Notes under the pieces: model-generated
Seen by the model: only the letters and a program-made list of their open reading frames with translations
The model's database searches: none
Told to the model about the DNA's origin: nothing
Assembly (NCBI GenBank): GCA_944349765.1
Contig: CALVNN010000001.1
Span: 87,138 to 151,137, forward strand
Origin: an uncultured Clostridia bacterium
GTDB taxonomy: Bacteria; Bacillota; Clostridia; Christensenellales; UBA1242
Direction of reading: 5' to 3'
Length of the DNA stretch: 64,000 nt
Part shown: positions 20,936 through 52,565 of the stretch, one piece after another
How positions within the stretch are numbered: position 1 is the stretch's first letter
How the letters are laid out: every line of letters begins with the position of its first letter
Position numbers and translations under genes: made by a program

Positions 20936-20964
20936 TTGACTTTTAATGTGTTTTTTAGTAAAAT
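20936..20964 (+). promoter_or_regulatory. Sigma-A promoter candidate P1 upstream of giant gene 1
   Basis: TTGACT, a 17-nt spacer, then TAAAAT. The -10 box overlaps the 8-bp-arm palindrome AAATTTAC-TAT-GTAAATTT (20961-20979). Confidence 0.5.
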
Positions 20965-20994
20965 TTACTATGTAAATTTATACCTTATTTAGCT

Positions 20995-21023
20995 TTGTAA
21001 TTTTTGTGTATTTTTAATACAAT
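20995..21023 (+). promoter_or_regulatory. Sigma-A promoter candidate P2 upstream of giant gene 1
   Basis: TTGTAA, a 17-nt spacer, then TACAAT. Confidence 0.4.
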
Positions 21024-21088
21024 AATTTGTCAAAAATTGTATATAAAAACGTTGCTAAATGGGTAGATTAATTAGAGGAGTAAATTTT

Positions 21089-24000
21089 ATGCTAAAAAAG
21101 AAAATTTATGGTTTACTATCTGTAGTTTTAATGTTTGTGAACATTGGGCTAGTAGGATGTACGCAAGGTGGTAATAATATTACGTTAGATGTAAGTACTG
21201 ATAATATTACCATTGTTTTAGGTGAAGAACCTGAAAATGAATCTTGGGAGATGAATACTGCTAAATTTACGGTATCTACCAATGTAAGTACTCAAGTTGT
21301 CTATCGTATAGAGAACGAAGGAGTTATTAGGGTGGATACTGATACGGAGCATTCATATAGTACCACTAAAACAGCTATTGTTACAGCGTTAAAGACTGGT
21401 ACAGCCAAGATTGTTGTGTTTACACCTGAAAGCAGTAGTGTCTATAAGGAGATAATTGTTAATGTTGTACAACCTATAACGTCTATTGAGTTTGTGCAAG
21501 ATTATGCTTTGTTTATACCTATAGGCGAACAGCGTGCTATAGATATAGATAATGCTTTCAATATAGAGCCTTTGTATGGGAATAAAAATGATCTTAGATT
21601 TGAGATCATTGATGACCAATATAATCTTGGAGCTACTATAGATGAGATAAGTGGAGTTATAGATGCAAGCAATGTTACCAATGTAGGTAATATCACAGTT
21701 CGTGCTTATACCACTGAAGAAATTTATGCCGATACCATTGTTCATATAGTTTCGCCTATAAGTGGTGACGATGTGAGTGTAGCAACTGAAGCAGGTGATA
21801 TAATTATGTCTAATGGTGAGTTTGTTTCAGAAGCAGGTAATAAAATAACACTTATCAAAACTACTGAAGAAAATAGTACAATCACTCTAAATGTAAATGT
21901 CAATAGTCTAAGTGAGTATGAGATTGACTTGACTATTGCCAATCCAAAAGCAATTACATATCAAAAAGTGGGCTCAAGCTCTTTTGTTATAAAAGCTTTG
22001 GAGCTTGGTCAATCTGATTTGAATTTTAGCATCAATATTTTAGGGGCTACTGGCATAGAGCCTTATGAATTTACTCTAGATGTAAATGTTTATGATAAAC
22101 CTTTGGATATCAATATAAATGGTTTAAGTGCTTCGAGTATGGATTATGTGTACAACACAACTATTTATAACAACTATAATCAAGGTGAATTAGGCACTCC
22201 ATTTAGGTTTACTTTAAATCCTAGCACTGTGACCGAAGAAAACAGTGATTTAACAATAACTTTTAACAACCCTAATACGGCGGTTAATGCTATAGCAGTC
22301 TTTAATGTTTATGGAGATAGATTGGGTATCCGTTATGACGCAAATGGTAATATGGTGTCACTTGAGCCATTTACTATAAAAGCTGGAGATACGATATATA
22401 TCAAAAGCACTTTAAATCAAGTCAATTCAGAACAATTTAGCTTTGTTGTGTCGTCGGTATTCTCGGTTAATTATCCTCCAGAAGTCTCCGCGACAGTTAA
22501 TCTTACTTTAAGAGAAGGTATCAGTGAATTCAGTTATGATAGGTCTAATCTGTATATAGAGCAAGGACAAAGTCAAACTGTTTACTTGAATGTTGGCAGG
22601 GATAATGCTGATACTTCAGGTATATATTATGAGGTGGAAGGCGATGCTGTAGAGGTCGTTAAAGTTACTGGTGATGAGGCAAATAATAGAAATTATATCA
22701 TAATTGGGCAAAAGCTCGGTGATGCAGTCGTAACTTTTTATAGCGGAAATGGTTTTGAAATAGTTATAAATGTGAAAGTTTACAATCCTCTTACTGAGTT
22801 ACTGCTTACTTCTGAGTCTCCATTGCAAAATGGTGCTATAGGGGAGCGAGAGTTTGTAAATGATAGTTTAGCGTATATAGCTGTGGCGACGGGTAGTAGA
22901 TTTAATTTGCAATACATTACTAATCTTGGGGCTAGCGTTGCAAATGTGAGGTATGAAGTTATAAATGGTAATACCTACGTCTCTACCACATCAGAAGGTC
23001 TGGTTAGTATATTAGGTACTGGTACAGCTACAATTAGGGTGAGTGTATACGGCTATGATCAGACTGGTATTATGGCTGATCCTTTGTATAAAACGGTTAC
23101 CGTAGAAGGGTATGTACCAGTTAGTAGTATTGCACTTAACAATACCACACTATATCTAAAAGATTATGAATCTGTAGGTTATTATAGAGTGGCTGAGTAT
23201 AGTCAAAAGCAATTAGTGATAAATACTTATCCATCCAATGCCGAAATAAATGAAGAAGATATCACTTGGACCTTGGTTGGTGAAGGCGGTAGCATCACAA
23301 ACACAACTGGTTTTAGCACGTTATTTACAGCAGGCCCTTTAAATGATTTTGATTCGACTACTTTGAGAGTATTAGTTAGCGTTATAGACCACGGCCGTGT
23401 ATTCTCTCAAGTATGTAATATAGAGGTTACTAAGGCTATCAAAGTTGAAGATGTTAGACTGGTAAATGTATTTAATAGTGAGATTTACTTTGATGGCCGT
23501 GATGGCTTAGGTGCTGAAGCGACTACATTTAATGTTCTCGCAAATACATATCCAACTAATGCATTTAACAATGCTTTGAGATATATATACATACACACCG
23601 ATGAAGAAAATACTTCTCCTGTATTTAGCGTGGATGCTATGGGTAATGTTCGTCCTATTAGAGGCGGTAGTGCTATATTGAGGATAGCTGCTGAGGATAG
23701 TTTTGTAAATATGGGCGAACCAAGTGTGTACACTGATGTGAAAGTTGTGGTTGCTGATGGAAAGACAAAAGAAACGGCTTATAGATTATATGACGCTCAA
23801 GATTTGCTAGATATAGGTAAAAATAGCAATTCATTGAATAGCTTCTATGTACTTGCTAACGACATAGATTTAAGCAGTATAAGTTCATGGACTCCTATAG
23901 GCGTGCTTAATGGTCAAATAAATGAGTTTAATGGCTATCTTAGCGGTCAGTATATTGTGGGTATAGGAGATAATGAACAAGTTATATCTAGTAGATTGTA

Positions 24001-27000
24001 CGGTATAAATTTAACTAAAGGCGTTAATGTATCAAATGAAACGACAGATACTAGCGGTACCGTTACAGAAAATATTTTCATTGCAAGCCTATTTGCTAAG
24101 CTCGGTTCTTCGGCTCAATTTGAAAATTTAGAAATTGAATATGAGAGCATAAGTATTGACTTAAGTAGTGCTAATTATTCATCAGTATATGTTGGTGGAT
24201 TAGTAGCGGTGCAAGAAGATTTAAATGACGATGGCGTCGAAGATGAACAACGACTGGAGGAGGGGGAGTTTGTCTTTGAAAATGTTGAAATTAACATTAA
24301 TAATGTAAATATTTCTAATGCAAGTTCTAGACAAAATGTATATTTCGGTGGACTTATTGCTAACTACAGATCTACCGTACTCATTGATTATATAGATAGT
24401 TGTACTGTAAATGCTACGAATGTATCTATTAGTGGTACGGCAAATTCGTTGTATGCAGGTGGTTTAGTTGGTTATATTGATGCTTTGGCTACTATACAAG
24501 GAACATATACACAAAGTACTGAAACTGGTGTCAACTATGGTAGTGTGTTTGGTGATGCTGGGTTTGATGTTGTTGCTGACTTTAATATATCTGCGAGTGC
24601 TACAAATAGCGCTGTAGGTGGACTAGTTGGATATGCACAAAATGTTATAAGTCTATCAAATGTAGGCTTTAAGGGTAGTATCAATGCTACAAGTGTTGAT
24701 AATGTTGGTGGACTAGCTGGTGTGTTTATTTCAAACAACACTTCGTATATTAATTTGGGCATATCTGTAATAAATACCGTTACTACTTTTGGTAAGGTGG
24801 TTGGACATAATAATGTCGGCGGTTTAGTAGGTGATGCGGACGTCAGAATATTCAACGCTATAGTAGAGAATTATGGCGATATAATAGCTCAAGGTAATCA
24901 AAACGTTGGTGGCGCTATAGGTAATTTAAGAGATGGAAGGATTTCTCTTGGTATGGTTACTAGCAGTAACAATTCCGCAAGCGTTGTAGGTGTGACTAAT
25001 GTCGGTACCATGATAGGTAATATGGCTAGTGGATTACTTGAGGCTGTATATACCGATATCAGTACTAGCGTAACAAATATTGTTTTAGTTGGTACGTCTG
25101 GTAATAATGCTCACGTTTCAAATTCTTTTGTTACGCAAGGTGCAATAGGTGTATCCAATGCTACTAATTGTTATGCTGTGACAGATTATAGCTCCGCTAT
25201 TAACGCGTGGAATGCTTTGACTGAGAAGCGATTTGAATTGAGCGAAATATTGAGCTCAGTGGTGGATGAGAATAATCAAATTATTACTGAATATTATACA
25301 GCTCAATGGTTGCAACCTGGTACAAATGGCATCAATGATCAAGTTAATAATGGTTATCCTATATTTGGGCTTGTTGATAGTTTGCCTTTCTATAACGTAA
25401 TACCAACAAGTATAGAAATTACTATTAAAGAAAATAACAGCTTATACAAAATAGACGATAGTAATGTCTTGATGTTCTATTATGAATTGACACAAACTTT
25501 AATAGATAATACATCTGCTAAAGATTTGGCTACATTGTACAAAAATGCTTTGGCTTTGAATACTATTGATTTAAATGCTATAGATTTTATTGAAGTTAAT
25601 GTATACCCTCAATCTTTTAGAGTGATTAGATTGGATTTGGAGGCTTTGGCTACTGATAGCAATGCAAGTAGCGACGTCTTACAAACGACCGCAGATGGAA
25701 AAGTTATTATCCAAAAAGAAGGTGTAGCTAGACTAAAAGTATCTAGCGTCATCAATCCAGAAGCAAATGATGAATTGTATGTAAATACTTTGAAAAGAGT
25801 CACAAGCTTTGCGTTAAATTCAAGCGACCTTGGTAATTCGTCAGAGGCACTTAACAGCAAGGATTTTGAGATAAGAAAAGGTGAAAGTGGATACTATTTT
25901 GTATATTTGGAAAATTACGATAAATTAAATAACATAAATTACAATTACACCGATAAATTTGAAATTGTATACACCATTTATGCTACTGAAAATGATAACT
26001 TAGTTAACATTGTAGTTGATGCGGAAGGTAATCCTACAAGTTATACAGTCAATCATATTATAGATAGGTTAAACTTCAATGATGTTGATTTTGAAGTGGC
26101 GTATAATTTTGATTATCAATTTGAAACGGATACTGAAGGTGAATTTGAAAATATCACATACTTGATGAATTCAAATAAACAACTGCCTCAAGATTTCTTG
26201 ACTAAATGGGCTAACGGTGCTGAAGTTCAGTATGTGCCAGGTGATACTATCGATGTGTATAGGTATGCTACTTACAAACTAGAAGTGAATAAAGTAGATA
26301 ATTATATAGCTTATTATGAAGATGATGAAATAGCTAATATTATGCCTATATATCTGTATTCCTTGTCTGCTAAATCTTATACAGACGGTATGCATATAAT
26401 TAATACCTTACAAGAAAGTCATATAGGTAATACTCCGCTAGAGGGAAGTGAGTATACAGTCAATGTAGCTCTTAATTATGTAGTTGACAAATTTACAACA
26501 TCAAATGATGTTTTATCTTCACAGAAGGAATCTATATTAGTAAAAGATGTTGCGAATAGTTTGACCAGTTTTGATTTGGTAATATATGATGGTGCGATAA
26601 GTATAGAATCTACTATCAATAGTGCCGTGAATGTGCCTGGTGATGTTGTAAATGTGGGGATAACATTAATTACAGATAATAGTAGTGATGAATTAGAAGT
26701 TGTAGAAATTGAAGATGTTATTATAGAACTTAGCAAGGTAGAAGAAAAGGCTATAGAGGGTGGTAAATATCAAAAAGACTATACACTATCTGTAAGTTTG
26801 GTGGATGAGTTTGATGTTAGACATCTTTCTACCAATAAAGAGTTGAATATAGAGGTTTATTCAACGCTACTTGAAGATAAGAGATTGATTGTACCTGTTA
26901 CTTTTGTTCCTCAACAAGTACAGAGGATGAATATCTACAAATATGCTGTAAGTAATGTTTCAAATAGCAACTATGAGGCATATGGCGTAAATGATTTGGT

Positions 27001-30000
27001 TATAACTACAAACGAACCAAGCATTCTTCAAATAAATGTTTATCCATACTATAGTCATATAGATGAGATAGAGATTAAGAGTAGTATGTATGAAGATACT
27101 TCAATTCTCTTTGAACAAATGATTCATACAACTGGGCAAAATTATAGAAGACTAATCCCTCAATCTCAAGCAACTGATGACCGTTTAGGTTTGAATTTGC
27201 AACAATATTCTAGATACGCAGAGGATGGCGTAACTAGAGTGTATGACGGTAATCTGTATGTGAAGTTGTTACTGAATAACAATGTACCAAAAAATACAGA
27301 ATTTACCATTACTATTAACGCGTACAACTATGATGTATTAGGTAATAGAGTGCTAGTCTCGACAAATAGTGTTGTGTTGTTATCTGAAGAGATTCCAGAA
27401 TTAGCTGTGACAACAGCTACCGAATCGCCATATATAGTAAAAGGTGTCCAAAATATTCTCAATGTCAATTTCAAACCGACGGCTGATGGACAAGATTATA
27501 GCCAAAATGTAACCGTATCGGTAAAGGGTGCGGATAATAATTATCAGACTTACATACCTGATGAATCCAATATGTTTGGTTTGGTAGATTACAAAAAAGG
27601 CGCTGTAACTACTGAAGATGGGCGTCGAATAAGCGAAGATGTATTGAACGTCGGTATAGGTGTGCCTACAGGTGCGCGAATTACTATTGTTTATACGGTC
27701 AGATACCAAATAAATAATATTGAAAAAGAGCTTAATGTGTCCAAGACCTTTACAGTGGTTGATTATGATATACAAAATATTTCGATATACTCATTTGGCT
27801 CTGAGTCTCATATCTTAAATATGGATGTAAATGAAGCATATCAATTTGGTGTGGAAAATGTATTATTTAAAGTTGCTCCAGAAGACTATGAAGACGCTAG
27901 CAATGCTTTCGGATATAATGAAGCGTTTGAATCTGAGTATTACAAATTATACTATGGCTATGGTGTAGTGGGTGACCGCACGGTAAATGTAAGTTATAAC
28001 GCTGGAAATGGTACATTTGAGTATGATGGTAAACCTGTCGTCGCTATTACGGAGCTAACTGCCGATGGGACTTTCACAAGTACTTTTAAGTATAAAAATG
28101 AAATAGATGGCAATGTAACATATTCTGAAATTGAGAGCTTTACTCCTGGCGTTTATTTGAAGATGTTAAGTGCTAAGAGAACTTTACAAAATAGAGTGGA
28201 TTTCTTTAAGAGACAAACAGCTCCAAATACTTACGAATCTTTCATAGATTATAGTGATCCTAATGTTGGTGTATATGTAAGACAATCTTTAAACGAAACG
28301 GATTATGAAATATCTGGTTTGAGATACGCTTATAGTTTGATAGGTGTTACTCCAATGATGAATCAAACTATGATGATGAGTATTGATTATGCGTATAATG
28401 ATGATGGTGAGTTGATATTCGATTCACTTCCTAGTGAACACGCTAATTATACTGACTATTATACATACAATATTCAGACTCGTACTAGTTTTGATGTACC
28501 TATCCCAATCTACACTCAGCAAGAGCTTGCAGAGATGACGGCTGGCGAGAACTATATATTAATGAATGATATTACGCTCGTTAATTGGGTGCCTATTAGT
28601 ACAGGTATAAGCAGTCTTGATGGTAATGGGTATAACCTGATAATCAGGAATTTTGATACAAGTACTGGCAATATAGGTTTGTTCAATACCGTGCAAGAGG
28701 ATACAATTCTAAAGAACATTACCATTAATATTAGTCAGATGGAATCCGTCATAGATATGTATAACTTTGAAGAAGTGTATTTTGGACTTTTGGCGGTGAC
28801 TAACGAGGGTACTATAACGAATTGTGCTATAAGTGCGGAAAATTTAGATGGCTCTCAAGTATCTTCTGGTGCGGAAAAAAGCATAACTATTAATACTAAT
28901 ACACTACTAGATGGTACTTTAGTAAGAGTGATGGCTGGATTGCTTGTTTATGAAAATAATAATGCCATTACAAATAGTAGAGTCGGTGATGCTGGTGTAA
29001 CTGGTGACACTATAACATCAAGCAGAATCATATCCTTGACAGCTGCGGGTGATTTGGCTGGTTTTGTATGTCAAAATGGTGGACATATCAGTTCTAGTTA
29101 TGCAAAACACATTAAGATTATCAACACTCTTGATGTCGCAAGCAATAGTCAGACTGCTGGATTTGTAGCTGCTAATGGTGGTACAATTGTAAGTAGTTAT
29201 GTAAGAGGTAGTCAGCAGTTAAGTGAAGATGAAGATAGTTTATATAGTGAGTATGGCTTACTAAGTTCAAATGGTTCAATAGGTGGCTTTGTATACAGTA
29301 ATAGTGGTAGTATACAAGATGCTTATTCAAATATAAATATTCAATCAAACGCTAGAACCGCGGGGTTTGTATTTAGCAATATAGACGAAGGGACAATAAC
29401 TAACGCTTACAGTGCGTCAAAGATCTCCACTAATTCAGCATTACATATGCCGTTTATAGGTGTAGATGATAAATCAGTAATCCAATGTGATGATCCAAAT
29501 AATATTACAAACGTGTATTATTACGTTGAGAATAATAAAGATTTTGAGGCTAGTGCTGTAGAAGAATTAGCTAGTCCAATCTTAAAATCAAATTTTGGAA
29601 CGCAGTCAAATTTTGCTGGCTTTGCATTTAGTGTTGCAGGTGAATACAATGCTATATGGACAATGACAGATGGCTATCCTGATCTATACGAAGCGAATGT
29701 TGAAACAATTTCAGAGCGAGAGCTTATTATAAATGAAAACAATCAAATCGAATATTACTATAAAAACAACTATAATTTAGGTACTGAGGAGAACCCTTAC
29801 ATAATAGCTAGTGCTTCTGATTATAATTATTACTTTGGTTTGGGACTTAGAACTGATAATTTAGTGGAGTCTAAGTATTTCAGACTCATAAATGATGTTG
29901 ATTTCGAGGCTGAAGATGCTACTATAGATGCTATAACAAAACAATTGACTCTGTACAATACGAGTATTGAAGGTAATGGCTTTACTATTAGTAATGTTGT

Positions 30001-36343: not shown

Positions 36344-36350
36344 TTGAATA

Positions 36351-36474: not shown

Positions 36475-39400
36475 ATGAGAGGAAAATTTGCTTGTCTAAT
36501 GGTGATATTGCTATCTATTGTGACATTAGGTTTTACTGGGTGTACTGGCGGTAGTAGCAATTTCTCATTTAGACTTTCAACAAATGAGGTTAATATCATA
36601 ATGGGGGAAGCGGACGAATCTGGCGAAGTGAATACTCAGTATGTAACCGCTGATATCGAAAATAATAACAGTAATTCGTCACTACTTTTTAGAATAGAAA
36701 ATGAAGGCGTTATTGCGTGCGAAATCACTGAGAGATTGAGCTATAGAGTTACTTTTAAGATAACGGCTTTAAACCCAGGTACTGCAAAACTGGTTGTTTT
36801 CAACGCAGACAGTAGTAACATGTCCGACGAAATAATAGTAAGAGTCTACAAACATATTGAAAATGTAGAGTTTGTAGATGGTTTTGCTATGTACGTGGTT
36901 AAGGGAAGCACTCAAAGCATAGATTTTGATAATGACCTAGAAATAACGCCACAAATGTCAGCTATGGAGGACTTGAGGTTTAGTATAGTTGGTGAGGCAC
37001 GTGGTTTAAAAATAGGGGAGACTACTGGTATTGTTGATGCTACTGAAGCTGAAGTTGGTGCTGTAACTATTCAAGTAAGTAGTGCTTACAATCCTGATCA
37101 GACTAGTACAGCTGTAGTTAATATAGTTGAGCCTATTGAGGTAGATGAGATAAATGTTGTTCAATCTGGTGCCGTTAATGCTGACATTATGAGCGGTGGT
37201 AGCTTGCTTGTCGACAATGTTACTTTGGTGAAGACCAAAGAAGACTATGCTTACACCACATTGACAGTCACTGCTTTAATGCACGAAGTAGGTGATTTGA
37301 CAATAAATGCAACTACTCAAGGTCGAGTAGTGCAGATCCAACAAGTTGCGGACAATGTATTTATTATAAAAGCATTGGAATTAGGGGATACGACCATTAC
37401 GTTAAGCTTTATTCAAAATGGTGCAGAAAAGTACTTAGAGCCTGTGTCAGTTGATATACCATTCCAAGTAATAGACGCACCTAGCCAAATCAACTTAAAC
37501 GGCGTTATGGTGGATGGTAGTACCAGTGTAAATATTTATAATAATTATGAGGACACATATTTAGGTGCAAGTCTTAGATTTACACTAAGTCCTACTAGTG
37601 TTCTTGAGGAACATTCTCGAATTATTCTCTCTTTAAAAAATTTAATTGGTTTACAACAACTAGCATTTTTCAATAGCAAATACGAACCTCTGACTATGAC
37701 AAGTGAGGGTATAACTATAACAGCTGGAGATACAATATACGTACGTGCGGACAATGTAGAGCCTGGTGAGGTATATACATTGATAGCACTTGCTGAAAAT
37801 ACAATGAATTATGGTGAGCCTGATACGTGGCTTAGCGTTGAAATAGAGCTAAATGTATTACAAGGCATTACTGATATGTATTTTGAGACTTCACCAGTGA
37901 TCATACGCAAAGGTGAGACCAAGACAGTGAGCGTCAATGTATCACCAGTTAATGCTGATGTCTCTACATTGACTACTTCTGGTAGTAATGAATATTTTGA
38001 TGTCGTAGATAATGGAAATGCTACTTATGACATAACTGCAAAAAAGACTGGTTCATCATATTTTACAGTTTATAGAGGTAACGGTTCGCCTATAACCACC
38101 TTAGTTGAAGTATACGAACCATTGACCGAAATGACTCTTGAGACCGATGAGAGCTACCAAAATGTAAATATAGGTAGTAAAGAGTACTATGATAATGGTG
38201 AACTTTATAAAGTATATGTTGCATTGCACTCAACAATTGATTTGTATATAAATTACAATAGTGGAGCCACTATTACAGATCTTGAGATCTATGTGGATGG
38301 GGTGTTATCCTCAAACAACTCTACTAGACTTACAGTAAGTAAAGAGGGTGAATCATTAGTTAGGGTAATTATATACGGATATGACCCTGAGACTGATGGA
38401 ACTATATATTCCATTGAGAAGACTATAAGAGTAGTAGGTTATAGACCTATATCGTCTATTTCATTAAATATACTTAATGGTGTAAGATATAATTATGAAA
38501 CTGTAGGTTTTTATAATCAAACACTTTTAAGTCAATACACACTCCAGGCACTGGTTTATCCACAAAATGCTACTTATGCTAGTGATGTCGTTTGGACCAT
38601 TACAGATAAGAGTAATGATGGGCTATTGTCTGGTAGTTTAAGTACATTATCTGGGCCTAGTACTATATTCACCGCGGGACCTTTTGAGTCTTTGAGTGAT
38701 ACAATTATTATTACAGCCAGCGTTACGGAGTTTGGTAGAAGCTTTAGTCAGACTTGTACTATTGAAGTTAGAAATGCTACTATGGTAGATAACATAGTCT
38801 TGAATAACGTGTCGAATAACCTATTAACATTTGATAGTAGAAAAGGTCTAGGTACTACAGATAACTCATTTACAGTGTCAGCATCAGCTTACCCTGTAAA
38901 TGCTCAAAATCGTAATTTGCGTTATAGCTACGTTCATATAGACGATTCTTCTTCAACACCAATATTTAGTGTTAATGCTAGCGGACAAGTTATACCTATT
39001 CGAGCTGGTACGGGTCTGCTCAGAATATCCGCAGAAGATAGTTTTATAAATGCTACAGAATCAAGTAGATATGTGGATGTTGTAGTAAAAGTGTTAGACG
39101 GACAAAGCATAGAAAATGCATTCCATATTTCCACGCCAGAAGAGCTTATGGATATTGGGTCAAGCGTCCATACAATGAGCCTATACTATGTATTGACTGC
39201 CGATATAGATCTAAAAGATATAGATTGGAACCCTATTGGAACAAATAATAAGACGGCATTTACTGGATATTTATCTGGTAAATTTGAAGTGCCTGAATTA
39301 GGAATATCTACACAATATTCTATAGATAATCTTACTATAAACAAATCTTTAAGTCAGAATATTGAAAGCTATTATGGTCTGTTTTATAGGATAAGCAGTA

Positions 39401-45400: not shown

Positions 45401-48400
45401 GTGCTTTGGCGGGAATAATTACTGGTGATTCGTACGTAAAAGGTGTTACTCTTGGCGAAAATGCAAAAGTTGTGGCAGATCTAGCTGGCGGGGCAGTAGG
45501 CTTGATAGATAAAGAAGTTACCTGCGAGTATATAACCGCTGAAGTTACAGCTAATAATTCTATTAAATACACTACAATTGCTGGTGGATTAGTCGCTGAA
45601 AATAGAGGTACTTTAAATGGTGCCGTGTTAACGTACCCAGATGAAGTGATGGCGACAGAGCAAGAAGGTGTATTGAATGAAACTGCTAATAACAATTACT
45701 TCAATCCAACAATTACCGATGATGACATTATCATTAGTAAGGGTATTACTGTCGGTGGTTTAGTCGGATTCAATAATGGCGGAAATATATACAATAGCTA
45801 CACTAATGTCAGCATTGTTGGCAAAGTATTAGTTGCTGGTGGATTAGTAGGACGTTCTATGAGCGGTAACATAGAATCTTGCTATTCAGCTAGCTCTATT
45901 GATGTGGGCATTACTGGTATTAACTCTGATAGTGAAAATACTTACGTTTACACTATCGTCGGTGGCTTAATTGGACTTGTTAGTGATGGTGCTTATAACA
46001 TTTTTGATAATTCTGAGGGCATTATTGATAGATTTGTCGATGATAGTACTAAAAAATTAAAACTAAACAATGTAATGGCAGTAAACAACTGGCTAATTAG
46101 TAGAAACTATTATAATCCAGTTAGAACTAATGAAAATGGTGGATATTATCTAAACTTTATTCAAGGTGGTTTGATTGGTGTAGTTAGTGATGAGAGCTAT
46201 GTAACCTCTACATTTAGTTCGTATAACTACTACAATAATGGTATTTATGCGGTTAATTCTCCTAGTGTGGGTTCCGAAAGGTATATACTTACTGAGACGG
46301 GCTTTGTAGGTGGATTGTCAAAAGAAGGTTCACAGGAATTTGACTATTTTCCTGAAAGACTTGCAGTGTATGATAACAAGATCAATATTTCAGCAGATAA
46401 GACGCGTTTGGAATTAAATAAATCAAATCCTATGGAAAGAATGCTTATGATTAGCGAGGGTGAAAAGGTAGTAGATGAAGAAACCGGAACTGTAACTTAT
46501 GTACCTTTTGAGACTGCTAACGGGATATTATACGGTGAAAGAAGTTATGTCGCAGCTATGTTTATCTATACTTCGTTTGAATTTACTGACATGGATGCTA
46601 AATATCCTACTTTAGTGGGCGTGCCTGATAATGTATTAAAACTTGAAAATTTAGCCCCTACCAATGATAATGGTCAAATGCAAATCTCTACCGATAGACA
46701 ATTAAAAAGAGTAAGAGATTTGATTAATACATCAACATTTAGCAATGATGTATATAGTACTAACATTGCGGGTGAAAATTATCTCAAGTCTGGTGGTATG
46801 AATCTAGTATTAGCGAATAGTATTGCGTTAACTGAAGAAAACTTCACTCCAATAGGTAGTAATACTAATCCATTTGTAGGTACTTTTGATGGCGATGGCT
46901 ATGTGATCAATAATTTGAGGACTAGCAATCATGCTTATACAGGTTTCTTTGGAGTAATTAAAGATTCTACAATCACGGATTTAGGCCTTGCTGAAGATTG
47001 CGTAATAAGGGCTACAAATTCAAATGTTGTAACAGGTATGATAGGCAAAGCAGTTGGTGATTGTACTATAAGCAAGGTATATAGCCGTGCTACTTATGAG
47101 GTCTCTACTAGTGGTACATTCGCTGCGCTTATTGGTGCAAGTGAAAATAATCCTAATGAAAAGAATACATTAAGAATTGAAAATAGTTACACAAATTTTG
47201 AGTTTGTAAGCTCATATAATGGTGAGACGACAATGAATGGTCTTTTGGGCAATTCTAAAGTAAATACAATTATTAATAATGTTTATACTGTCGCTACACT
47301 AAATTATTCCTCAAACGCAAATATACAAAGCGATTACAATGGTTTTGTCGGTACAAGTAACAATGTTTATCTTTATAGTTCATGGATGAGAGCTACAGCG
47401 GTATCTGGCAAAAATAAGAGTATAGATGTAAATGTTTTAGGTGATGTAAATTATCCTAATAAAGTATACTATTACGTAGATTCAGTGCCTTATGTACAAC
47501 AAATTATGTCACAAGGTGCTAGATCTATAAGCAATACAATAGAGTTTATGAGTCAATCATTCTATATGATTGAAAACAACTGGAATAATAGTTATCTATG
47601 GGATTTTAGCAACACTTGGATAATAGAAGAAGAATATCACACATATCCTGTTTTGGGCGAAAGCGAATATGATTCTAATTATTACGAAGGTATAGGTCGA
47701 TATGATCCTTATACTGGTTGGTATTATATAGAAAAAGAAGAACATATTCAAAATTTAGCTAAGTTAATCAACGATGGTACCATTAGAAGTGGCGCTAGTG
47801 GCTTGACGTTTGTGCTATTTAATGACCTTAAGGTCAGCTTAAGTGAGCCTATAGGTGATTACGCTAATGCCTTTAGAGGGACTTTCTATGGGTTTGGTCA
47901 TACATTGACTGTAACATGGGATAATACAACTGTAAATGCTGATAGCACTACGGCTTATGGATTATTTGGACGTATGGAAAATGCTATTTTGAATAATCTA
48001 AATATTAAGTACACTAATGGCATCACGCTCAATATGTCCAATGGTGCTACAGGTTATCTAGGTGGTGTAGCAGGACTTGCACGTTACGGTATGATAGATA
48101 GAGTTACTGTAGATATGCCAAATACATTTACTCTTAATGCTTCTAATTCTTATAGTTACCTCGGTGGTATTGTAGGACAAACAGATAATGAGCAGATTAC
48201 ACGTTGCTATGTAACAGCAAATCTAGCGGGCTCAGACACTGATTCTGATTATCAGTTACGTATGGGTGGCTTGGCAGGCTATGTTAAGTCTCAAAATATA
48301 TCTATAGTAAATAATATGGTTAATATAGACGCGCAAATTAACTCTGTAGTAAATAATATATCTGATACTTACTCAGGCTTACTATTTGGGCAAATCCGTA

Positions 48401-51400
48401 GAGTGGACTATGTGAGTATGATTGAATACAATTATTACGATAGAGAAGCTGATAGTAATGTGATAAATGCAACGAATCAAGGTTCATTATCTGGTACTAA
48501 TAGGACAAGTTCTGGAGTGGGTAATTTCACTTACAACAATTCAAGTATATGGGATATCAATAACTACTCATGGCTTGAAGGATCAGAAGATGACGAGTTG
48601 AAATTTGAAATACAATCTATTACTTTTGATATGTATAATCTATACTCAGAAGAGGATCCAAAATCTACTACCGAAGTTGACAAATTGATAAATAGTGCTA
48701 GTTGTAGGGTGGATTATACAGGTAGTGCATTGATAGCTCCAACCTTTGAGGTCGTATACTCTACCCCTGATCCAGATAATAGTGAAAGTAATCAAGATTA
48801 CGTATATAAAGCTAATACTTTATTAAACTATTATGTTGTAGATAAGACAAAAGAAACTAAGGATGGTATTACCTATGCTAAGAATTTAGCTGGAGAGGGT
48901 ATATATGTCCTAAGTGTCGATACAAGTATGGTTACTATAGAGATACCAGATATAATTGAGCTATCTTTTGGTACGTATGATGAAGTATCACTAAAGAAGG
49001 ATTCCTTCACTAATGGAAGTATGGGTAGTGATACTAGCAAGATCAACAATTATGCTAGAACTATCATATTGGGCCGCAGTGTGGTAGATATTCCGACAGG
49101 TGAATCTAATCCATTCCAATATGTAAGTAATTTAAGTACACTAAGGGTGTCTTCAAATAATAGTTACTATAGCAGTGCTATAAATGGTATTAACTATAAT
49201 ATGATTTATAGTCTAAGAGATAGCACTACCTTGATAGCTGGATGTGCAAATACCACTATCCCAGAGGGTGTTAGAAAAATAGCTGATTACGCTTTTGCTA
49301 ATTCCAATATTGGTGAGATTAACTTCCCAAGCAGTTTAACTCAAATAGGTAATTATGCATTCTACAATTGTGCTCAGCTAACAAATATCAATAAAGACGA
49401 TCAATGTAATTTGACTAGTATAGGCAATAGTGCCTTTGAAGGATGCAGTAGCTTGACAAGCTTTGATTTGGGACAAGATCTAGAAAGTATAGGTTCTTAT
49501 GCTTTTGCTAATACTACTCAAATAACAGCATTTGTCATTCCAGCCTCTGTAGAGAGTATAGGTGCGAATGCATTCTTAGGAAGTGCTTGGCAAAATAGTC
49601 AGACAACAAATAGTACTACACCTTACTATATCTTAAACAATTGGATAGTAGGTACTAATGCAAGTAATGCAGCTGCCACTAAAGAGAAATTGGATTTGTC
49701 TAGTTTGAATATAATTGGTATAGCTGATCAAGGTTTGGCTAATTTAAGTCAGGTGACTGAGATTATATTCCCAGCTGGTAGTTCAAATGGTATCAAATAT
49801 ATAGGCGAAGGTGTATTGCTTGGCGCTAACTCATTAAAGTCTTTGACTATTCCTTATTTAGGTAGTACACCTCGTTTAGGTGATAACATAGGTTATGTAT
49901 TTGGTAATACTGACTTTATTTGGGCAGGCGTGCCAGCTTCACTTAAGTATATTAATGTCTTAGAGGGGACAATAGTTGAGAGTGCTTTTGAAGGACTAAC
50001 TATAAATACATTAAACACTGGTGATGCTAGTATAGAACATGGTGCTCTATTTGGCATAACTTTCACTAGTATGGATGAAGCTAAGCCTAGCTTAACTATG
50101 ATGATGGATAATAGTAACGATTATCTAGGTAATGCCTTCGGTTTGGAAGAAGGCGAGAGTATGGACTTCACAATCTTTGCTAGCATTACATTGACTGGTA
50201 CTTTAAGAAGTGGCGCTATTATAAGAGAATACATAATGACAGGTGTTGAACTTAATATTATAGCAACTATCAGTAATGGTGCTATCGTAAATGAGACAAT
50301 TAATGATTTGTCTATTACAGTTAATGATGATTGCCATATAAATCAAGGTGCTATATCAAATTCTATTATTAATAACGTCGAAATAAATGATAGTAGCTCA
50401 AATCATAATTCTACCAAGATAGCTGAAGGTGCGTTTGATAATGTTACATTTGATAATGTTACGCTACCTTATTTGGGCGGTAGTCTTAATGCTACTAATG
50501 CAACATTTAATTACTTCACAGAGACATCAAATCTAAGCAATTCTATAGTACATATACTTAACGGAAATATTACGGCAAATGCATTCAGTGGATGGTATAT
50601 AGAAGAACTTATCGTAGATTATGGTGTGACGCTAAGTGCTCAATGTTATAATGACTTGGATGTTATAAAATTAACAACTCCAGTTATTGATGAAAATACA
50701 ACATTAGCTACACTATTTGAAGGCGGTAACGTATCTCCATATCTAAACTTCTTAACATTTGCCGATGGTAGCTATATTGTGAATAATTATTTCTTAGGTG
50801 ATGATAAAGAGGTTAAAGCTGTAGGATGTAATATAATTGGTCTTGAAGTGCCATCTACTGTATCATATTCTGGTGATGAACTACTTTACATTCCATCTCT
50901 GTCGAAAATAGTATATGTTAAGGATACAAATTCAAAAGCTTTAAATAGATATACAAATAAAGCAGGAGCAACAATAATTACCACAGACACAGGCGAGCTA
51001 CCTGTACAACGTGTAGATAAGTACTTAGTATATAAAAAGGATGGCAAAAATTATCTAATAGGCGCCTATGGTAAGCATACCGACTTAAGTGATTGTGCTC
51101 AAGTACTGAAGGCTAATGGTATAGAAAAAATTACCGGAGTGTATAAATTCGCATTCAAGCTTAATGAGGAATTAACAGCAATAACATTACCAGAAGAGAT
51201 AACAACTGTCGATTATATGGCATTTGACGGGTGTAGGGAATTAACTACTATTAATGCTGATACGACTTTCAAAGTGCCACTAATAAAGGGAATAGGCGAT
51301 TATGGTTTTTCAAGTACATACGTATTATCTAATGTTGATTTAAGTGAGCTTACGTCAATAGGGAAATACGCATTTTACTATTCTGGAATCGTTCAAGCCA

Positions 51401-52506
51401 ACATAATCAACGTAGACCAAATCCCTCATGGTGCTTTTGAGCATGCTGAAGACTTAATGATTGTGACATTTAGTGAGAATTTAACATCTATAGGAGCTTA
51501 TGCTTTTAGTTACTGTACCTTTTTAACTAATACTATATTCCCTGATACTTTAGAATCTATTGGAGCTTATGCTTTCAGTGATTGTACGACTTTGACTGAA
51601 GTGGATCTAAGCAATACAAAATTAACTACAATGTCTGATAGTGTATTCAGTGGATGTACATCGTTAGAGGAGATAAAATTACCTAGTACAATCACAACTA
51701 TAGACAATTATGCATTCTACAATTGTGCTAAATTAAAACCAATAGCTTTGAATGGCATAACTTCTTTAGGTGATGGGGCATTTGGAGGTAATCAACTAAT
51801 TGAAACAGTACATATACCTTCAAGTATTACTATAAATGGTAATCCTTATCAGTATTGTACAAATTTGAGCAGTATAACAGAGGATAATACTCGTTATCGA
51901 GTTGAGGGAAGTTGCTTAATACGTGAGAGTGATAACGTGTTAATCATTGGTACTACTTCAGCGCAATACTTACCTACCTCAATAAATAAGATTGGACAAA
52001 GTGCATTTAGAGGTATACCATTAACAACTATTGAAGTACCTCATACAGTATCAGAAATACAATCATACGCCTTCTACGATACTGGATTAATAAGATTTTA
52101 TCACCATTATGAAGACAATGAGTTTATTACTTATGGTGAAAATGTCTTCAAAGATCTTAAGTATGCATTTTTAGACAATTACGTAGATCTAACTAATGAT
52201 GGATCGTTTTCAGCTGACGCTGTGAAAGGTTACCTAGATATTTTAAAAGCTAGCAAGTCGGGGCTTACTCTTGAAAATACATACACAGAGATAGGTAAAA
52301 GAGGTGATGAATTGTATGATGACGTACTAAATGACGCAAATCGAAGTGAGACAGATCTTGGTTATGATATTACAAAGTATTCAGGAGTGGTTGATGGGGA
52401 TACCATTGATTGTTATAGAATAAGGTGGTATAACTATAATCAAGATAGAGTTATGTATGAAGCCTCAGTGTATTATAGTAGTAAATATCTAGATGATAGA
52501 TACTAA
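36475..52506 (+). CDS. Giant surface lipoprotein 2 (5,343 aa): Big_2-like Ig array, repeated cap + GLUG-rung modules, C-terminal BspA-type LRR_5 blocks
   Basis: Uninterrupted 16.0-kb ORF with an AGGAGA RBS. It has a signal peptide and the lipobox FTG|C (Cys codon at 36541). The N-terminal 1,000 aa or so align with giant gene 1 (FRIENEGVI, GTAKLVVF, DLRFSIVGE, IFTAGP). GLUG rungs are present (YIGGLVGYS, SLGGLVGEN, NVGGIVGYN, NVGGLAGYS). Confidence 0.85.
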   Translation: MRGKFACLMVILLSIVTLGFTGCTGGSSNFSFRLSTNEVNIIMGEADESGEVNTQYVTADIENNNSNSSLLFRIENEGVIACEITERLSYRVTFKITALNPGTAKLVVFNADSSNMSDEIIVRVYKHIENVEFVDGFAMYVVKGSTQSIDFDNDLEITPQMSAMEDLRFSIVGEARGLKIGETTGIVDATEAEVGAVTIQVSSAYNPDQTSTAVVNIVEPIEVDEINVVQSGAVNADIMSGGSLLVDNVTLVKTKEDYAYTTLTVTALMHEVGDLTINATTQGRVVQIQQVADNVFIIKALELGDTTITLSFIQNGAEKYLEPVSVDIPFQVIDAPSQINLNGVMVDGSTSVNIYNNYEDTYLGASLRFTLSPTSVLEEHSRIILSLKNLIGLQQLAFFNSKYEPLTMTSEGITITAGDTIYVRADNVEPGEVYTLIALAENTMNYGEPDTWLSVEIELNVLQGITDMYFETSPVIIRKGETKTVSVNVSPVNADVSTLTTSGSNEYFDVVDNGNATYDITAKKTGSSYFTVYRGNGSPITTLVEVYEPLTEMTLETDESYQNVNIGSKEYYDNGELYKVYVALHSTIDLYINYNSGATITDLEIYVDGVLSSNNSTRLTVSKEGESLVRVIIYGYDPETDGTIYSIEKTIRVVGYRPISSISLNILNGVRYNYETVGFYNQTLLSQYTLQALVYPQNATYASDVVWTITDKSNDGLLSGSLSTLSGPSTIFTAGPFESLSDTIIITASVTEFGRSFSQTCTIEVRNATMVDNIVLNNVSNNLLTFDSRKGLGTTDNSFTVSASAYPVNAQNRNLRYSYVHIDDSSSTPIFSVNASGQVIPIRAGTGLLRISAEDSFINATESSRYVDVVVKVLDGQSIENAFHISTPEELMDIGSSVHTMSLYYVLTADIDLKDIDWNPIGTNNKTAFTGYLSGKFEVPELGISTQYSIDNLTINKSLSQNIESYYGLFYRISSNDYMQYSKYEGAPVVGRVEDLSISVNINVDCSDIEQLRNNAEFNVYVGALAGSYVVHNSYNQALLNGSLTERYGIKNVSIINNGFTYSAGKNNAYIGGLVGYSNGLIEYTTKAIGFSGQTIVINDRIEYPTLGTSDTHIYHPKYSLGGLVGENAGVVKGIYTNEINTDNEIEYLTLFESEGVTVTADICGNIGLVNNKDNIKSINSKVGGVVGVSRGILEGLASENTVNGLNNVGGIVGYNTGIIKNCLSASKVNGNENVGGLAGYSSGSVVRSVFEVYETTSLTANDIAVSGFKYVGGLIGYLEDANLQYCYTMSYVTEIDGYYDITVNGDGENIGGLVGYATGSGITQCYSNLNINASEVQDNGVVGTLVGNGSGYSVSYSNTNNIIATYSNAGITAIPGYANGGNITNSYFYVGEGYSINGNTSANSIADVLNAIDSALVYFLSDGNLRYIGTASDTEGVLSQYPLVPKLPTSITAKIKDSNNILSHQVEVNGVKEDVLILQFYDAINPNDQSKLTLSNQVTIGDYLDVSVSPNEGRTTRINVVSGNENVLRVSSDGTLRILSTGYVSLTLSNKVKESVRTVVHIYIVNSITDFTLYSSINTDEGADDLNGTPNNPKLLRLKKDSNQIIVPVFSGYTTSNDGTEIIATKVDENIGVRYTYTKDNGYYNYDVAGATMGDDYIDIDQRFQTILKALAKTNENIVITATPYVYLTNIGGTVLNNEKVLLDELSATFELQVYVGATNMEFDGSVEAEIYSGTTTEVAVVVTTDNYEDVPSLTITDSTNTVVYAQNIKGDTFDVEGLTPTVYYMTVGSSEWILEDLNDTTLAEFYADKDLYAKKFVYNVSLTLPSKFISQNTSYTLSFGVQSNNQLGLEYPITFMPESIHDMYVQTYAYGEVDYFTGQYNPSEESALTIVPGVNGLIEIDINPIYSDYDTILIQSDDIRFEQLIKKNITNSNEYPYVLPGDRLYLTDGITMVKQYFDSNNNIVWGTNGKYYASMALKDSAEDGEEFEIRITVVKNTSSGQQILQQTTLTLVAQNPPGVSINIDGQDGMVADLYLPVGTQNDMNVSLKDFDGANIEWTYTNLDTGMPYTGLEVVQNGDSYSLNISRNALSGDYVEITASATKSIGGATRTTSDSIRVIMVDYVIRDIGFEGVYNSELREVFGGEYPLSLSFENSMFYYDTTNPAIEQAIRDQLARLSSTDYNTWYAYRSGTNGVDVAITNYYSNNYYRAYTLSETDKQLYVTGNYYDDLISNQKRISATLMYYFDRTQRSYVFARNGMENIATRTEDTIHDLYTGSRILNGRVYNVINRVFDLSFYLSTSRENAIPVYNANDLLNMEDDCNYILMNNIVVDSFSPIQADIASLNGNNYTITLRSYIDDTENRAGEKNIGLFETISENCIIENLKLVIDTSKLYIDAEGYDTVTFGTLAAVNEGKIYNCSVEYITSSTPSSAIVDTVISGRQVNMSYDYSTMAVLSNDGEDSTGSMVSANARGIVVQTTLTQIDGAFVTTVIGGLVGDNSGYIVNCTTDVAIHGYGTMGGMVGINNNTIASSKVLGTLNSYTLVNSLSNIGGFVGINNGRINLCYVEGDYNLSSGNAGSVPVEINASCYVGGFVCLNSESGVINNAYANIKIISQDTTAGFVYNNQGSISNAYSTSIVRENSLKAMAFVGVDDLNNINNSGTLDYCYFLRGNYTNQTLQPVNMIDNASDFTDVNTFTNFAFDVNTDGTLIKDSTSSVWSIQNGKPTINSANRVVKGYVTLISQGGENGQIVYNYSALKGATLGSADHPYVIYTPEDFNNFISEVGTNNNKYYVLASDITFEETSMMATTYKVNFHGVFEGNGMVIYNLRLSTKYQDFANANSMGIFASISGRETSSGELERAIVRNLDIYLGEVYGTNLYTTGALAGTIQNAMINNINIYSNGDETVMVQGRNATGVIAGVIKNSIVSDIYIDAGANAGYRQDVASLYLDASTDVSNDYPKPIESGRLASVSYAGALAGIITGDSYVKGVTLGENAKVVADLAGGAVGLIDKEVTCEYITAEVTANNSIKYTTIAGGLVAENRGTLNGAVLTYPDEVMATEQEGVLNETANNNYFNPTITDDDIIISKGITVGGLVGFNNGGNIYNSYTNVSIVGKVLVAGGLVGRSMSGNIESCYSASSIDVGITGINSDSENTYVYTIVGGLIGLVSDGAYNIFDNSEGIIDRFVDDSTKKLKLNNVMAVNNWLISRNYYNPVRTNENGGYYLNFIQGGLIGVVSDESYVTSTFSSYNYYNNGIYAVNSPSVGSERYILTETGFVGGLSKEGSQEFDYFPERLAVYDNKINISADKTRLELNKSNPMERMLMISEGEKVVDEETGTVTYVPFETANGILYGERSYVAAMFIYTSFEFTDMDAKYPTLVGVPDNVLKLENLAPTNDNGQMQISTDRQLKRVRDLINTSTFSNDVYSTNIAGENYLKSGGMNLVLANSIALTEENFTPIGSNTNPFVGTFDGDGYVINNLRTSNHAYTGFFGVIKDSTITDLGLAEDCVIRATNSNVVTGMIGKAVGDCTISKVYSRATYEVSTSGTFAALIGASENNPNEKNTLRIENSYTNFEFVSSYNGETTMNGLLGNSKVNTIINNVYTVATLNYSSNANIQSDYNGFVGTSNNVYLYSSWMRATAVSGKNKSIDVNVLGDVNYPNKVYYYVDSVPYVQQIMSQGARSISNTIEFMSQSFYMIENNWNNSYLWDFSNTWIIEEEYHTYPVLGESEYDSNYYEGIGRYDPYTGWYYIEKEEHIQNLAKLINDGTIRSGASGLTFVLFNDLKVSLSEPIGDYANAFRGTFYGFGHTLTVTWDNTTVNADSTTAYGLFGRMENAILNNLNIKYTNGITLNMSNGATGYLGGVAGLARYGMIDRVTVDMPNTFTLNASNSYSYLGGIVGQTDNEQITRCYVTANLAGSDTDSDYQLRMGGLAGYVKSQNISIVNNMVNIDAQINSVVNNISDTYSGLLFGQIRRVDYVSMIEYNYYDREADSNVINATNQGSLSGTNRTSSGVGNFTYNNSSIWDINNYSWLEGSEDDELKFEIQSITFDMYNLYSEEDPKSTTEVDKLINSASCRVDYTGSALIAPTFEVVYSTPDPDNSESNQDYVYKANTLLNYYVVDKTKETKDGITYAKNLAGEGIYVLSVDTSMVTIEIPDIIELSFGTYDEVSLKKDSFTNGSMGSDTSKINNYARTIILGRSVVDIPTGESNPFQYVSNLSTLRVSSNNSYYSSAINGINYNMIYSLRDSTTLIAGCANTTIPEGVRKIADYAFANSNIGEINFPSSLTQIGNYAFYNCAQLTNINKDDQCNLTSIGNSAFEGCSSLTSFDLGQDLESIGSYAFANTTQITAFVIPASVESIGANAFLGSAWQNSQTTNSTTPYYILNNWIVGTNASNAAATKEKLDLSSLNIIGIADQGLANLSQVTEIIFPAGSSNGIKYIGEGVLLGANSLKSLTIPYLGSTPRLGDNIGYVFGNTDFIWAGVPASLKYINVLEGTIVESAFEGLTINTLNTGDASIEHGALFGITFTSMDEAKPSLTMMMDNSNDYLGNAFGLEEGESMDFTIFASITLTGTLRSGAIIREYIMTGVELNIIATISNGAIVNETINDLSITVNDDCHINQGAISNSIINNVEINDSSSNHNSTKIAEGAFDNVTFDNVTLPYLGGSLNATNATFNYFTETSNLSNSIVHILNGNITANAFSGWYIEELIVDYGVTLSAQCYNDLDVIKLTTPVIDENTTLATLFEGGNVSPYLNFLTFADGSYIVNNYFLGDDKEVKAVGCNIIGLEVPSTVSYSGDELLYIPSLSKIVYVKDTNSKALNRYTNKAGATIITTDTGELPVQRVDKYLVYKKDGKNYLIGAYGKHTDLSDCAQVLKANGIEKITGVYKFAFKLNEELTAITLPEEITTVDYMAFDGCRELTTINADTTFKVPLIKGIGDYGFSSTYVLSNVDLSELTSIGKYAFYYSGIVQANIINVDQIPHGAFEHAEDLMIVTFSENLTSIGAYAFSYCTFLTNTIFPDTLESIGAYAFSDCTTLTEVDLSNTKLTTMSDSVFSGCTSLEEIKLPSTITTIDNYAFYNCAKLKPIALNGITSLGDGAFGGNQLIETVHIPSSITINGNPYQYCTNLSSITEDNTRYRVEGSCLIRESDNVLIIGTTSAQYLPTSINKIGQSAFRGIPLTTIEVPHTVSEIQSYAFYDTGLIRFYHHYEDNEFITYGENVFKDLKYAFLDNYVDLTNDGSFSADAVKGYLDILKASKSGLTLENTYTEIGKRGDELYDDVLNDANRSETDLGYDITKYSGVVDGDTIDCYRIRWYNYNQDRVMYEASVYYSSKYLDDRY
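49260..52100 (+). repeat. LRR_5 (BspA-type) repeat blocks at the C-terminus of giant gene 2
   Basis: The units fit the pattern IP-x-V-x-IG-x-AF-x-C-x-L-T. Examples are IPEGVRKIADYAFAN, LTQIGNYAFYNCAQLT, LTSIGNSAFEGCSSLT, LTSIGAYAFSYCTFLT and LESIGAYAFSDCTTLT. Confidence 0.8.
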
Positions 52507-52537
52507 TACTATTTAATAAAAATTTTTATGTAAAAAT

Positions 52538-52565
52538 CACGAGATTACATCTCTCGTGGTTTTTA
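52538..52565 (+). terminator. Rho-independent terminator of giant gene 2
   Basis: Stem CACGAGA/TCTCGTG followed by GTTTTTA, about 30 nt after the stop. Confidence 0.7.

Follow-up and report, generated by a model that had tools for sequence, protein, structure and literature searches.

A conserved tandem pair of giant predicted lipoproteins with immunoglobulin-like and beta-helix domains in an uncultured Clostridia bacterium

Within a 64-kb stretch of DNA from an uncultured Clostridia bacterium (contig CALVNN010000001.1; the whole stretch is hereafter called the window), two giant genes, which we call A and B, lie head to tail and take up ~31 kb of chromosome. We lean towards reading their products as a conserved pair of N-terminally lipid-anchored, fiber-like surface proteins, most likely adhesins. 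The building blocks of these proteins, namely Big_2-like immunoglobulin (Ig) domains, GLUG-type beta-helices and BspA-type leucine-rich repeats (LRRs), are all of known kinds. The novelty lies in how they are combined: the family is uncatalogued, chains of 5,000 amino acids (aa) bear an N-terminal lipobox, each chain has several diverged beta-helices, and an ancient A/B pair sits at one core locus. All positions below are those of the window unless a different sequence is named, and all features of A, B and their flanking signals are on the forward strand.

Gene A (21089..36343) encodes a predicted lipoprotein of 5,084 aa and gene B (36475..52506) one of 5,343 aa, with a spacer of 131 nt between them. 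An earlier reading made from the sequence alone had described two uninterrupted giant open reading frames (ORFs) of these lengths and this spacing, and the ORF scan bears this out, with zero internal stops in either frame. The open frame of A spans 21059..36343, and its first ATG, at 21059, is an alternative start that would give 5,094 aa. We favor the ATG at 21089 as the probable start, since GAGGAG stands 8 nt upstream of it and the closest ortholog, P0003, likewise begins with MLKKK. For gene B, an identical protein is found on a metagenome contig from ENA (L002). In the DNA of A and B, long repeats, direct or tandem, are lacking and short Gly-codon repeats at 35480-36300 are all there is, so that collapse of repeats during assembly is not a concern. 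Both genes are also free of homopolymer runs of at least 8 nt, which rules out phase variation by homopolymer slippage in the window. Their GC content (0.33-0.38) and GC skew are the same as those of the flanks. In composition, the two proteins are rich in Asn, Ser, Thr and Gly and contain 0.3-0.7% Cys, as is typical of giant surface proteins, and it is mostly surface proteins that giant bacterial genes encode.

The sequence-only reading had also called A and B paralogous, on the basis of motifs shared by their N-termini, and the relationship proved to reach far beyond those motifs. BLASTP aligns the two proteins in two colinear blocks, one of ~1,590 aa (A 12-1589 with B 1-1577; 30% identity, E 4e-149) and one of ~900 aa (A 2476-3382 with B 2301-3211; 28% identity, E 3e-69), in which the coordinates of A are numbered on the 5,094-aa ORF. 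Each of the motifs that had been quoted (FRIENEGVI, GTAK(I/L)VVF, DLRF(E/S)I and IFTAGP) was located; together with the lipoboxes LVGC/FTGC, they fall in aligned conserved columns of A and B, the first and last in the fuller forms (Y/F)RIENEGVI and (L/I)FTAGP. Given that the identity between A and B is only ~30%, we judge the duplication to be old. Self-BLAST found no internal repeats, meaning that the modules described below are too diverged for that method.

Predicted lipid anchor and domain architecture

Both proteins begin with a signal peptide that ends in a lipobox. In A (21089..21160), the lipobox is L-V-G-C, with Cys24 preceded by IGLVG; in B (36475..36543), it is F-T-G-C, with Cys23 preceded by LGFTG. 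Two rules were applied: a PROSITE PS51257-type rule, which asks for a positive n-region, a hydrophobic h-region and a lipobox ending in Cys at position 15-35, and the strict Gram-positive G+LPP pattern, which requires [LVIAM] at position -3. A passes both and B passes the PROSITE-type rule only. Among the 35 relatives with complete N-termini, 33 pass the PROSITE-type rule and 18 the strict pattern. In the family, position -3 is recurrently occupied by both L and F, and the lipobox Cys is invariant in the alignments. The lipoprotein signal peptides that the sequence-only reading had seen on both proteins are thus upheld, and that A and B are lipidated is a well-supported prediction. Its further statement that anchoring does not run through LPXTG or SLH motifs likewise stands: neither A nor B shows an LPXTG-like motif, each has a single hydrophobic segment, which lies at the N-terminus and not at the C-terminus, and Pfam scans of both returned no Gram_pos_anchor or SLH match.

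We envisage that Sec would export both proteins, that Lgt would then put a diacylglycerol on Cys24 of A and Cys23 of B, and that LspA would cut just before this lipobox Cys, leaving the mature chains tethered by their N-termini to the outer face of the cytoplasmic membrane. A protein with a lipobox relies on the general Sec, Lgt and LspA machinery alone, so that the lack of a dedicated secretion gene nearby is expected. The earlier reading had seen no dedicated secretion, glycosylation or sortase gene within the window, and no sortase, glycosyltransferase or secretion gene was seen among the window ORFs scanned, but the missing secretion gene is not a puzzle. The sole signal peptidase in the window is lepB, of type I.

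Behind the anchor, the order of domains is ~870 aa of Ig-like domains, a GLUG beta-helix, a region of ~1,000 aa, 4-5 more beta-helix modules and a distal tip. The N-terminal region of A (aa 25-890; 21161..23758) is best described, from sequence profiles and models, as a divergent Big_2-like array of ~8-9 Ig/beta-sandwich domains, and BLASTP and alignments identify a paralogous Ig-like array in B (36544..39102). An AlphaFold2 (AF2) model of this array, built from three sequences, is all-beta with a mean predicted local distance difference test (pLDDT) score of 63. Its Foldseek matches are strings of Ig, cadherin and S-layer beta-sandwiches, including NUP210 (E 1e-24), contactin and Sap/EA1/SbsB. 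In an exhaustive hidden Markov model (HMM) search, remote matches of the N-terminal profile hit positions 455-575 and 95-230 many times per protein; six of these remote matches were scanned, and all proved to be Big_2 repeat proteins. A distant family member (P0023) has a precomputed Pfam Big_2 match. In A itself, the best Pfam Big_2 (PF02368) match, at aa 57-120, scores 16.3 bits (E 0.0099), below the gathering threshold of 22.8 bits. The Ig-like array proposed earlier is hence supported by the all-beta model, the Foldseek matches and the reach of the profile to Big_2 proteins, with the direct Pfam match remaining sub-threshold.

The first beta-helix module of A (aa 893-1440; 23765..25408) consists of an N-cap motif followed by GLUG-type rungs, and is supported by AF2, Foldseek and clustered GG-phi-x-G motifs. 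An AF2 model of aa 893-1560, based on an 11-sequence family alignment, reached a pLDDT of 82.4 and a predicted TM-score of 0.86, and every Foldseek match of the model is a right-handed parallel beta-helix. The highest Foldseek probabilities belong to the IgA1 protease structures 6xjb (1.00), 7uvk (0.97) and 6xja (0.94) and to BACOVA_03286 (3n6z, 0.93), and the lowest E-values, 0.009-0.013, to phage tailspikes and LnbX. The corresponding module of B (39112..40794) was found through cap and rung profiles and a Pfam GLUG match of 43 bits covering 5 stretches. Modules 2-5 follow at aa ~2466-4620 in A (28484..34948; N-cap motifs at aa 2491, 2933, 3520 and 4242, and rung-profile matches) and at aa ~2301-4050 in B (43375..48624; caps at aa 2302, 2770, 3445 and 3790). 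Overall, the cap and rung profiles yield 5-6 helix modules per protein.

With a gathering threshold of 20.5 bits for Pfam GLUG (PF07581) and scans in chunks of 560 aa, GLUG matches were obtained at aa 3061-3620 of A (42.9 bits) and at aa 1021-1580 (43 bits) and 3571-4130 (29.7 bits) of B; scans in chunks of 2,600 aa lose GLUG matches and miss those in A entirely. The GG-phi-x-G motif is clustered and exceeds the ~4.5 expected occurrences, with 29 in A and 26 in B. Sequence searches of the PDB with A and with a profile of the beta-helix family gave nothing meaningful, and almost no literature on the GLUG motif was found. The earlier claim that everything behind the Ig array consists of GLUG rungs thus holds in part: there are rungs above the Pfam cut-off, a predicted beta-helix fold (pLDDT 82) and 5-6 modules, but ~1,000 aa in the middle of each protein and the last ~1,200 aa of B are not GLUG.

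In the middle region of A (aa 1441-2465; 25409..28483), a small linker domain after module 1 is followed by one Big_2-like domain, and aa ~1488-1591 are the only part of the region to reach Big_2 arrays. The remaining ~870 aa (aa ~1600-2465) have no match in Pfam, NCBIfam or the PDB, and the matching part of B has none in Pfam or NCBIfam.

The distal tips of the two proteins are of different kinds. A ends in a Gly-rich, Cys-containing module (aa ~4621-5084; 34949..36340), in which GGxGG occurs 13 times and Gly accounts for 21% of the final 350 aa. The same type of tail is found on six A-type relatives of ~5,000 aa each (P0004, P0006, P0009, P0011, P0012 and P0018), and in five of these six the very last residues are C[YI]LQS. 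Gly makes up 18-29% of the final 350 aa in the A-type proteins that have such a tail, and the tail appears as beta-helix rungs with long GGxGGxGG insertions and several Cys. No relatives of the A tail were found in the PDB, and none of the distal 843 aa of A in the word-indexed protein database described below. In B, the tip is a pair of BspA-type LRR_5 arrays (aa ~4118-4530 and ~4770-5206; 48826..52092), identified by Pfam LRR_5 (PF13306), which scores 298.8 bits (E 3.7e-90) and is over threshold in B and without a match in A, and by the PDB relatives 4fs7, 4gt6, TpLRR and PcpA. In NCBIfam, A and B gave nothing except a weak match of B to the LRR adhesin HupY/LrrG. Among the family representatives, the B of the window alone carries an LRR tail.

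A family held at one locus

Protein databases were searched with the N-terminus. A word-indexed search of 5.8 billion proteins returned one relative, and an exhaustive profile search of 1.84 billion representatives returned 36 proteins at E < 1e-30. Some 40 representatives, most of them 3,200-5,400 aa long, share all 889 positions of the N-terminal array. The ten clusters that were looked up are all metagenomic, with members that are unnamed or labeled "hypothetical protein", and no NCBIfam model covers the family. Phage origin was ruled out, as zero relatives were present in 2.9 million viral contigs. The array is a specific marker (~40 clusters in 1.84 billion) that could be used for tracking the lineage and for picking targets for proteomics or cryo-electron tomography.

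BLAST splits the family into A-type and B-type lineages, and intact orthologous pairs occur in seven other assemblies. The tandem pairs comprise those of CAYMVO01, titled "uncultured Lachnospiraceae bacterium" (L003/L004, two loci 15.6 kb apart), CASFBJ01 (L005; 5,072 + 3,957 aa), DJPS01 and two ENA contigs (L006-L008; 5,047 + 3,956 aa), a 903-kb JGI contig and a Logan contig (L009/L010; 5,036 + 3,793 aa), an ENA contig (L011; 5,184 + 5,381 aa) and a further Logan contig (L012; 5,039 + 4,568 aa). The length of the first, A-type gene stays within 5,021-5,318 aa even where lineages have no more than 25-37% identity, and the second, B-type gene ranges from 3,261 to 5,343 aa among the representatives.

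The left border of the locus (18762-20839) is formed by an M23 peptidase, an acyl carrier protein (19470-19691), a SpoIIID homolog (19829-20089) and a divergent PP-loop ATPase. This upstream context, M23-acpP-SpoIIID-PP-loop, is shared by the window, L003 and L009; L005 and L010 show spoIIID and the PP-loop gene, L010 also the carrier-protein gene, and L011 and L012 do not show the context. At four loci, the PP-loop neighbor is 78%, 68%, 64.5% and 57% identical, and the N-termini of the giant proteins at the same loci, in the same order, are 61%, 31%, 38% and 26% identical. From this comparison, it follows that the giant genes evolve two to three times faster than their neighbor, yet are never lost. 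The genes at the left border, including spoIIID, indicate a sporulation-capable, Clostridia-type host.

One syntenic A ortholog, from another metagenome (L001), is broken: it has an in-frame TAA with an A18 run immediately behind it (4715-4733 of that locus) and a change of frame at ~7165-7189. Faulty assembly, decay into a pseudogene or slippage at the site could each account for the break.

Proposed function, rival explanations and known systems

In the arrangement that we propose, the Ig-like array would form a stalk through the wall, and the beta-helix modules and their spacers would extend it into a fiber of the order of 100 nm or more, as estimated from domain counts. The distal modules, the LRRs in B and the Gly-rich tail in A, would bind ligands on the host, the matrix, glycans or other cells, with A acting as the length-conserved partner and B as a length-variable partner with an exchangeable tip. 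Under the definition of Monzon et al. 2021 (PMC8286594), a fibrillar adhesin-like protein lies outside the cell, has a stalk and an anchor, and carries an adhesive region at its terminus. As far as sequence and models can tell, the layout of A and B includes the predicted extracellular location, the stalk and the anchor. As for the distal adhesive region, B has its C-terminal LRR_5 arrays and A has a Gly-rich tail without a recognized adhesive domain.

Several points weigh against an adhesive role, or against details of the proposal. The locus is a fixed core locus across deep divergence and A-type length is constant, whereas adhesins are usually accessory and repeat-variable; such constancy suits a structural role no less well. 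The tip of A offers no recognizable adhesive domain, the Foldseek E-values for module 1 are all weak (at least 0.009), and ~1,000 aa of each protein are without an assignment. The lipobox of B fails the strict G+LPP rule (F at -3), and lgt and lspA lie outside the 64-kb window, their presence in the genome being assumed. Finally, binding, expression and lipidation, like export and surface exposure, are predictions for an organism that is uncultured.

The constancy of the locus could instead mean that A and B are partner subunits of a core envelope scaffold, that is, a lineage-defining structure of fixed length that might stand in for an S-layer, tether a sheath or space cells from one another or from the host. 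The tandem pair indeed recurs in at least seven other lineages and is retained at its fixed locus down to the 57% identity of the PP-loop neighbor, the first gene holds its length despite having diverged to 25-37% identity, the colinear conserved blocks of A and B could pair, and the fold of the N-terminal array is like that of the S-layer proteins Sap, EA1 and SbsB. We nevertheless consider such a scaffold, the main rival, a minority possibility, because SLH, CWB2 and other S-layer anchoring domains are missing, self-assembly is conjectural, the fold matches are generic tandem beta-sandwiches with low TM-scores, and the distal ends and the B-type length vary, with LRR_5 being a ligand-binding module. 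We are slightly more doubtful still of a more far-reaching version, in which A and B would be obligate partners of an undescribed, length-defined, lipid-anchored heteromeric fiber or coat of Ig domains and multiple beta-helices, encoded at one core locus beside spoIIID and defining an uncultured Clostridia-type lineage. If it exists, such a superstructure would be a novel means of constructing the Gram-positive cell surface and not an accessory adhesin.

A catalytic role for one or more of the beta-helix modules, as depolymerase, lyase or glycosidase along the lines of phage tailspikes, pectate lyases or LnbX, would make A and B surface-tethered polysaccharide-degrading enzymes for membrane-bound glycan foraging. 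The Foldseek matches of module 1 do include tailspike depolymerases, the lacto-N-biosidase LnbX (GH136), GH28 polygalacturonases, pectin methylesterases and PL6, and a giant beta-helix protein of Ca. Epulopiscium has been read in this way (PMC10756260). Those matches, however, have E-values of at least 0.009 and low probabilities, and it is the beta-helix of IgA1 protease, which is non-catalytic, that attains the top probabilities; with zero glycoside hydrolase, lyase or esterase families in Pfam or NCBIfam, no PDB sequence relatives and no HExxH, we think enzymes unlikely. Still further down we place contact-dependent toxin delivery, in the manner of a polymorphic toxin with a conserved N-terminal fiber and a variable C-terminal effector. 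A conserved core with a C-terminal region that varies over the family would suit it, but Pfam finds no toxin or pretoxin domain, no small immunity-like gene follows downstream, where degV comes next, in reverse orientation, and the C-termini are LRRs in B and a Gly-rich beta-helix continuation in A, all of which makes this a very improbable explanation. That the genes are a product of repeat mis-assembly, or decaying pseudogenes that merely look intact, seems to us the least credible proposal of all. The assembly is derived from a metagenome and the ortholog L001 is broken by an in-frame stop beside its A18 run and a change of frame; against this, the DNA of A and B has no repeats that could collapse, an identical B is present on an ENA metagenome contig, intact orthologs of 3.3-5.4 thousand aa occur in many independent assemblies, and a 15-kb open frame at 34% GC is not sustainable by chance.

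Returning to A and B as lipid-anchored fibers, among the closest parallels are the fibrillar adhesins and the giant non-fimbrial adhesins such as SiiE, which are alike in having a long single chain, a tandem Ig stalk, an anchor and, as far as the LRRs of B go, a distal module of the ligand-binding type. Unlike the LPXTG adhesins of Firmicutes, A and B carry an N-terminal lipobox, and their polarity is therefore inverted. Their body consists of 5-6 diverged beta-helix modules and not of near-identical repeats, and the two genes form a core, syntenic pair of conserved length, not an accessory one. Lipoprotein anchoring was not among the anchors searched for in the survey by Monzon and colleagues (PMC8286594), and nearly half of the candidates in one fibrillar-adhesin survey had no known anchor. 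If our prediction holds, Firmicutes can hang 5,000-residue fibers on an N-terminal lipid anchor. More than 5,000 aa would probably be very large for predicted lipoproteins.

Individual parts of A and B have counterparts elsewhere. With the GLUG beta-helix of the streptococcal and Gemella IgA1 proteases (6XJB, 6XJA, 7UVK) and with BACOVA_03286 (3N6Z), they share a fold match and the Pfam GLUG motif. In contrast to the IgA1 proteases, they have several helices per protein and lack an M26 domain, HExxH and any sequence-level PDB match; they are not members of that family. A protease role was rejected because HExxH and an M26 match in Pfam are absent, and no PDB sequence match places A and B among the M26 IgA1 proteases either. 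The last ~1,200 aa of B are shared with BspA-type LRR surface proteins (LRR_5; TpLRR 6MLX, PcpA 4CP6, gut-bacterial 4FS7/4GT6); in B, however, the LRRs make up no more than the far end of a lipoprotein of 5,343 aa, and they are absent from A and from the other B-type representatives.

Genes longer than 5 kb make up ~0.2% of genes, according to Reva and Tummler as cited in PMC10756260. In Apilactobacillus kunkeei, five tandem genes for giant extracellular proteins of 3,000-9,000 aa span 90 kb; the proteins have been detected by proteomics and their function is unknown (PMC10496945). Like A and B, these are head-to-tail giant surface-protein genes in a Firmicute, but their products have type-I signal peptides, in some cases transmembrane domains, and no lipobox; no homology to A and B was found, and they are not among the family matches. 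Ca. Epulopiscium viviparus, of the Lachnospiraceae, has genes of more than 15 kb with Ig-fold and parallel beta-helix content (PMC10756260). Compared by description only, these giants differ from A and B in having Fn3 domains, transmembrane segments and up to 31 Ig folds, in that several are predicted to be cytoplasmic, and in that no lipobox pair is described. No curated family covers A and B, and the lineage that carries them is known from metagenomes alone. Their fixed locus and fixed first-gene length, set against the swappable tip of the second gene, provide a natural experiment that separates the structural parts from those that determine specificity.

Spacer, flanking signals and neighboring genes

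The spacer between A and B contains a 20-bp stem-loop (36388..36434; spacer fold z = -5.2), which occurs only once within the window. Three genomes preserve all 20 of its pairs, with compensatory changes at six, the counterparts lying at ~9900-9946 of L004 and in the spacer of L005 (17255-17458). It is absent from the distant locus L009, whose spacer measures 56 nt and is unstructured. The stem-loop could be a partial terminator, or an element for processing or stabilizing the mRNA.

Upstream of A lies a promoter-like site, TTGACT-17-TAAAAT (20936..20964), with 10 of 12 positions matching. Motif matches in the surrounding region are not enriched compared with shuffled sequences, and the site therefore stays a candidate. 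After B, a hairpin followed by a T-run (52538..52565) resembles a terminator and is possibly bidirectional. The outer bounds that the sequence-only reading had given to the pair, 20936 and 52565, correspond to the -35 hexamer of the promoter-like site and to the close of this hairpin and T-run. A second hairpin between B and degV (52699-52736), of 16 bp, is GC-poor and has T and A runs on either side; it is probably a bidirectional terminator serving the convergent B and degV.

The window as a whole is ordinary chromosome, with prmC, prfA, rnhB, lepB, Fe-ADH, aldehyde dehydrogenase, PFOR, truA, a class II aminoacyl-tRNA synthetase, degV and two tRNAs among its genes. Four genes upstream of the left border (12572-18693) are syntenic in L003, at 41-57% identity, and none of their products has a Pfam match: a 572-aa lipoprotein with the lipobox LSGC (12572-14290), a 751-aa multi-pass membrane protein with a long tail rich in Lys, Glu and Ala (14487-16742), a 405-aa cytoplasmic protein (16875-18092), whose counterpart in L009 (24% identity) carries Pfam Fe-ADH, and a 153-aa secreted protein (18232-18693).

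Two further genes of the window are worth noting. The first (5546-8266) specifies a free-standing, 906-aa BspA-type LRR_5 protein (E 4e-142) with an N-terminus weakly like camelysin (Peptidase_M73), and is 22-41% identical at the protein level to the LRR arrays of B. Gene conversion between it and B was ruled out, the sole DNA match being one 20-nt stretch. The second (59181-62372, reverse strand) encodes 1,063 aa without a Pfam match, in which we recognize by eye a signal peptide, a long, repetitive-looking extracellular part rich in Asn, Ser and Thr, a C-terminal transmembrane helix and a cytoplasmic tail rich in Lys and Glu, making it a third kind of surface anchoring within the window.

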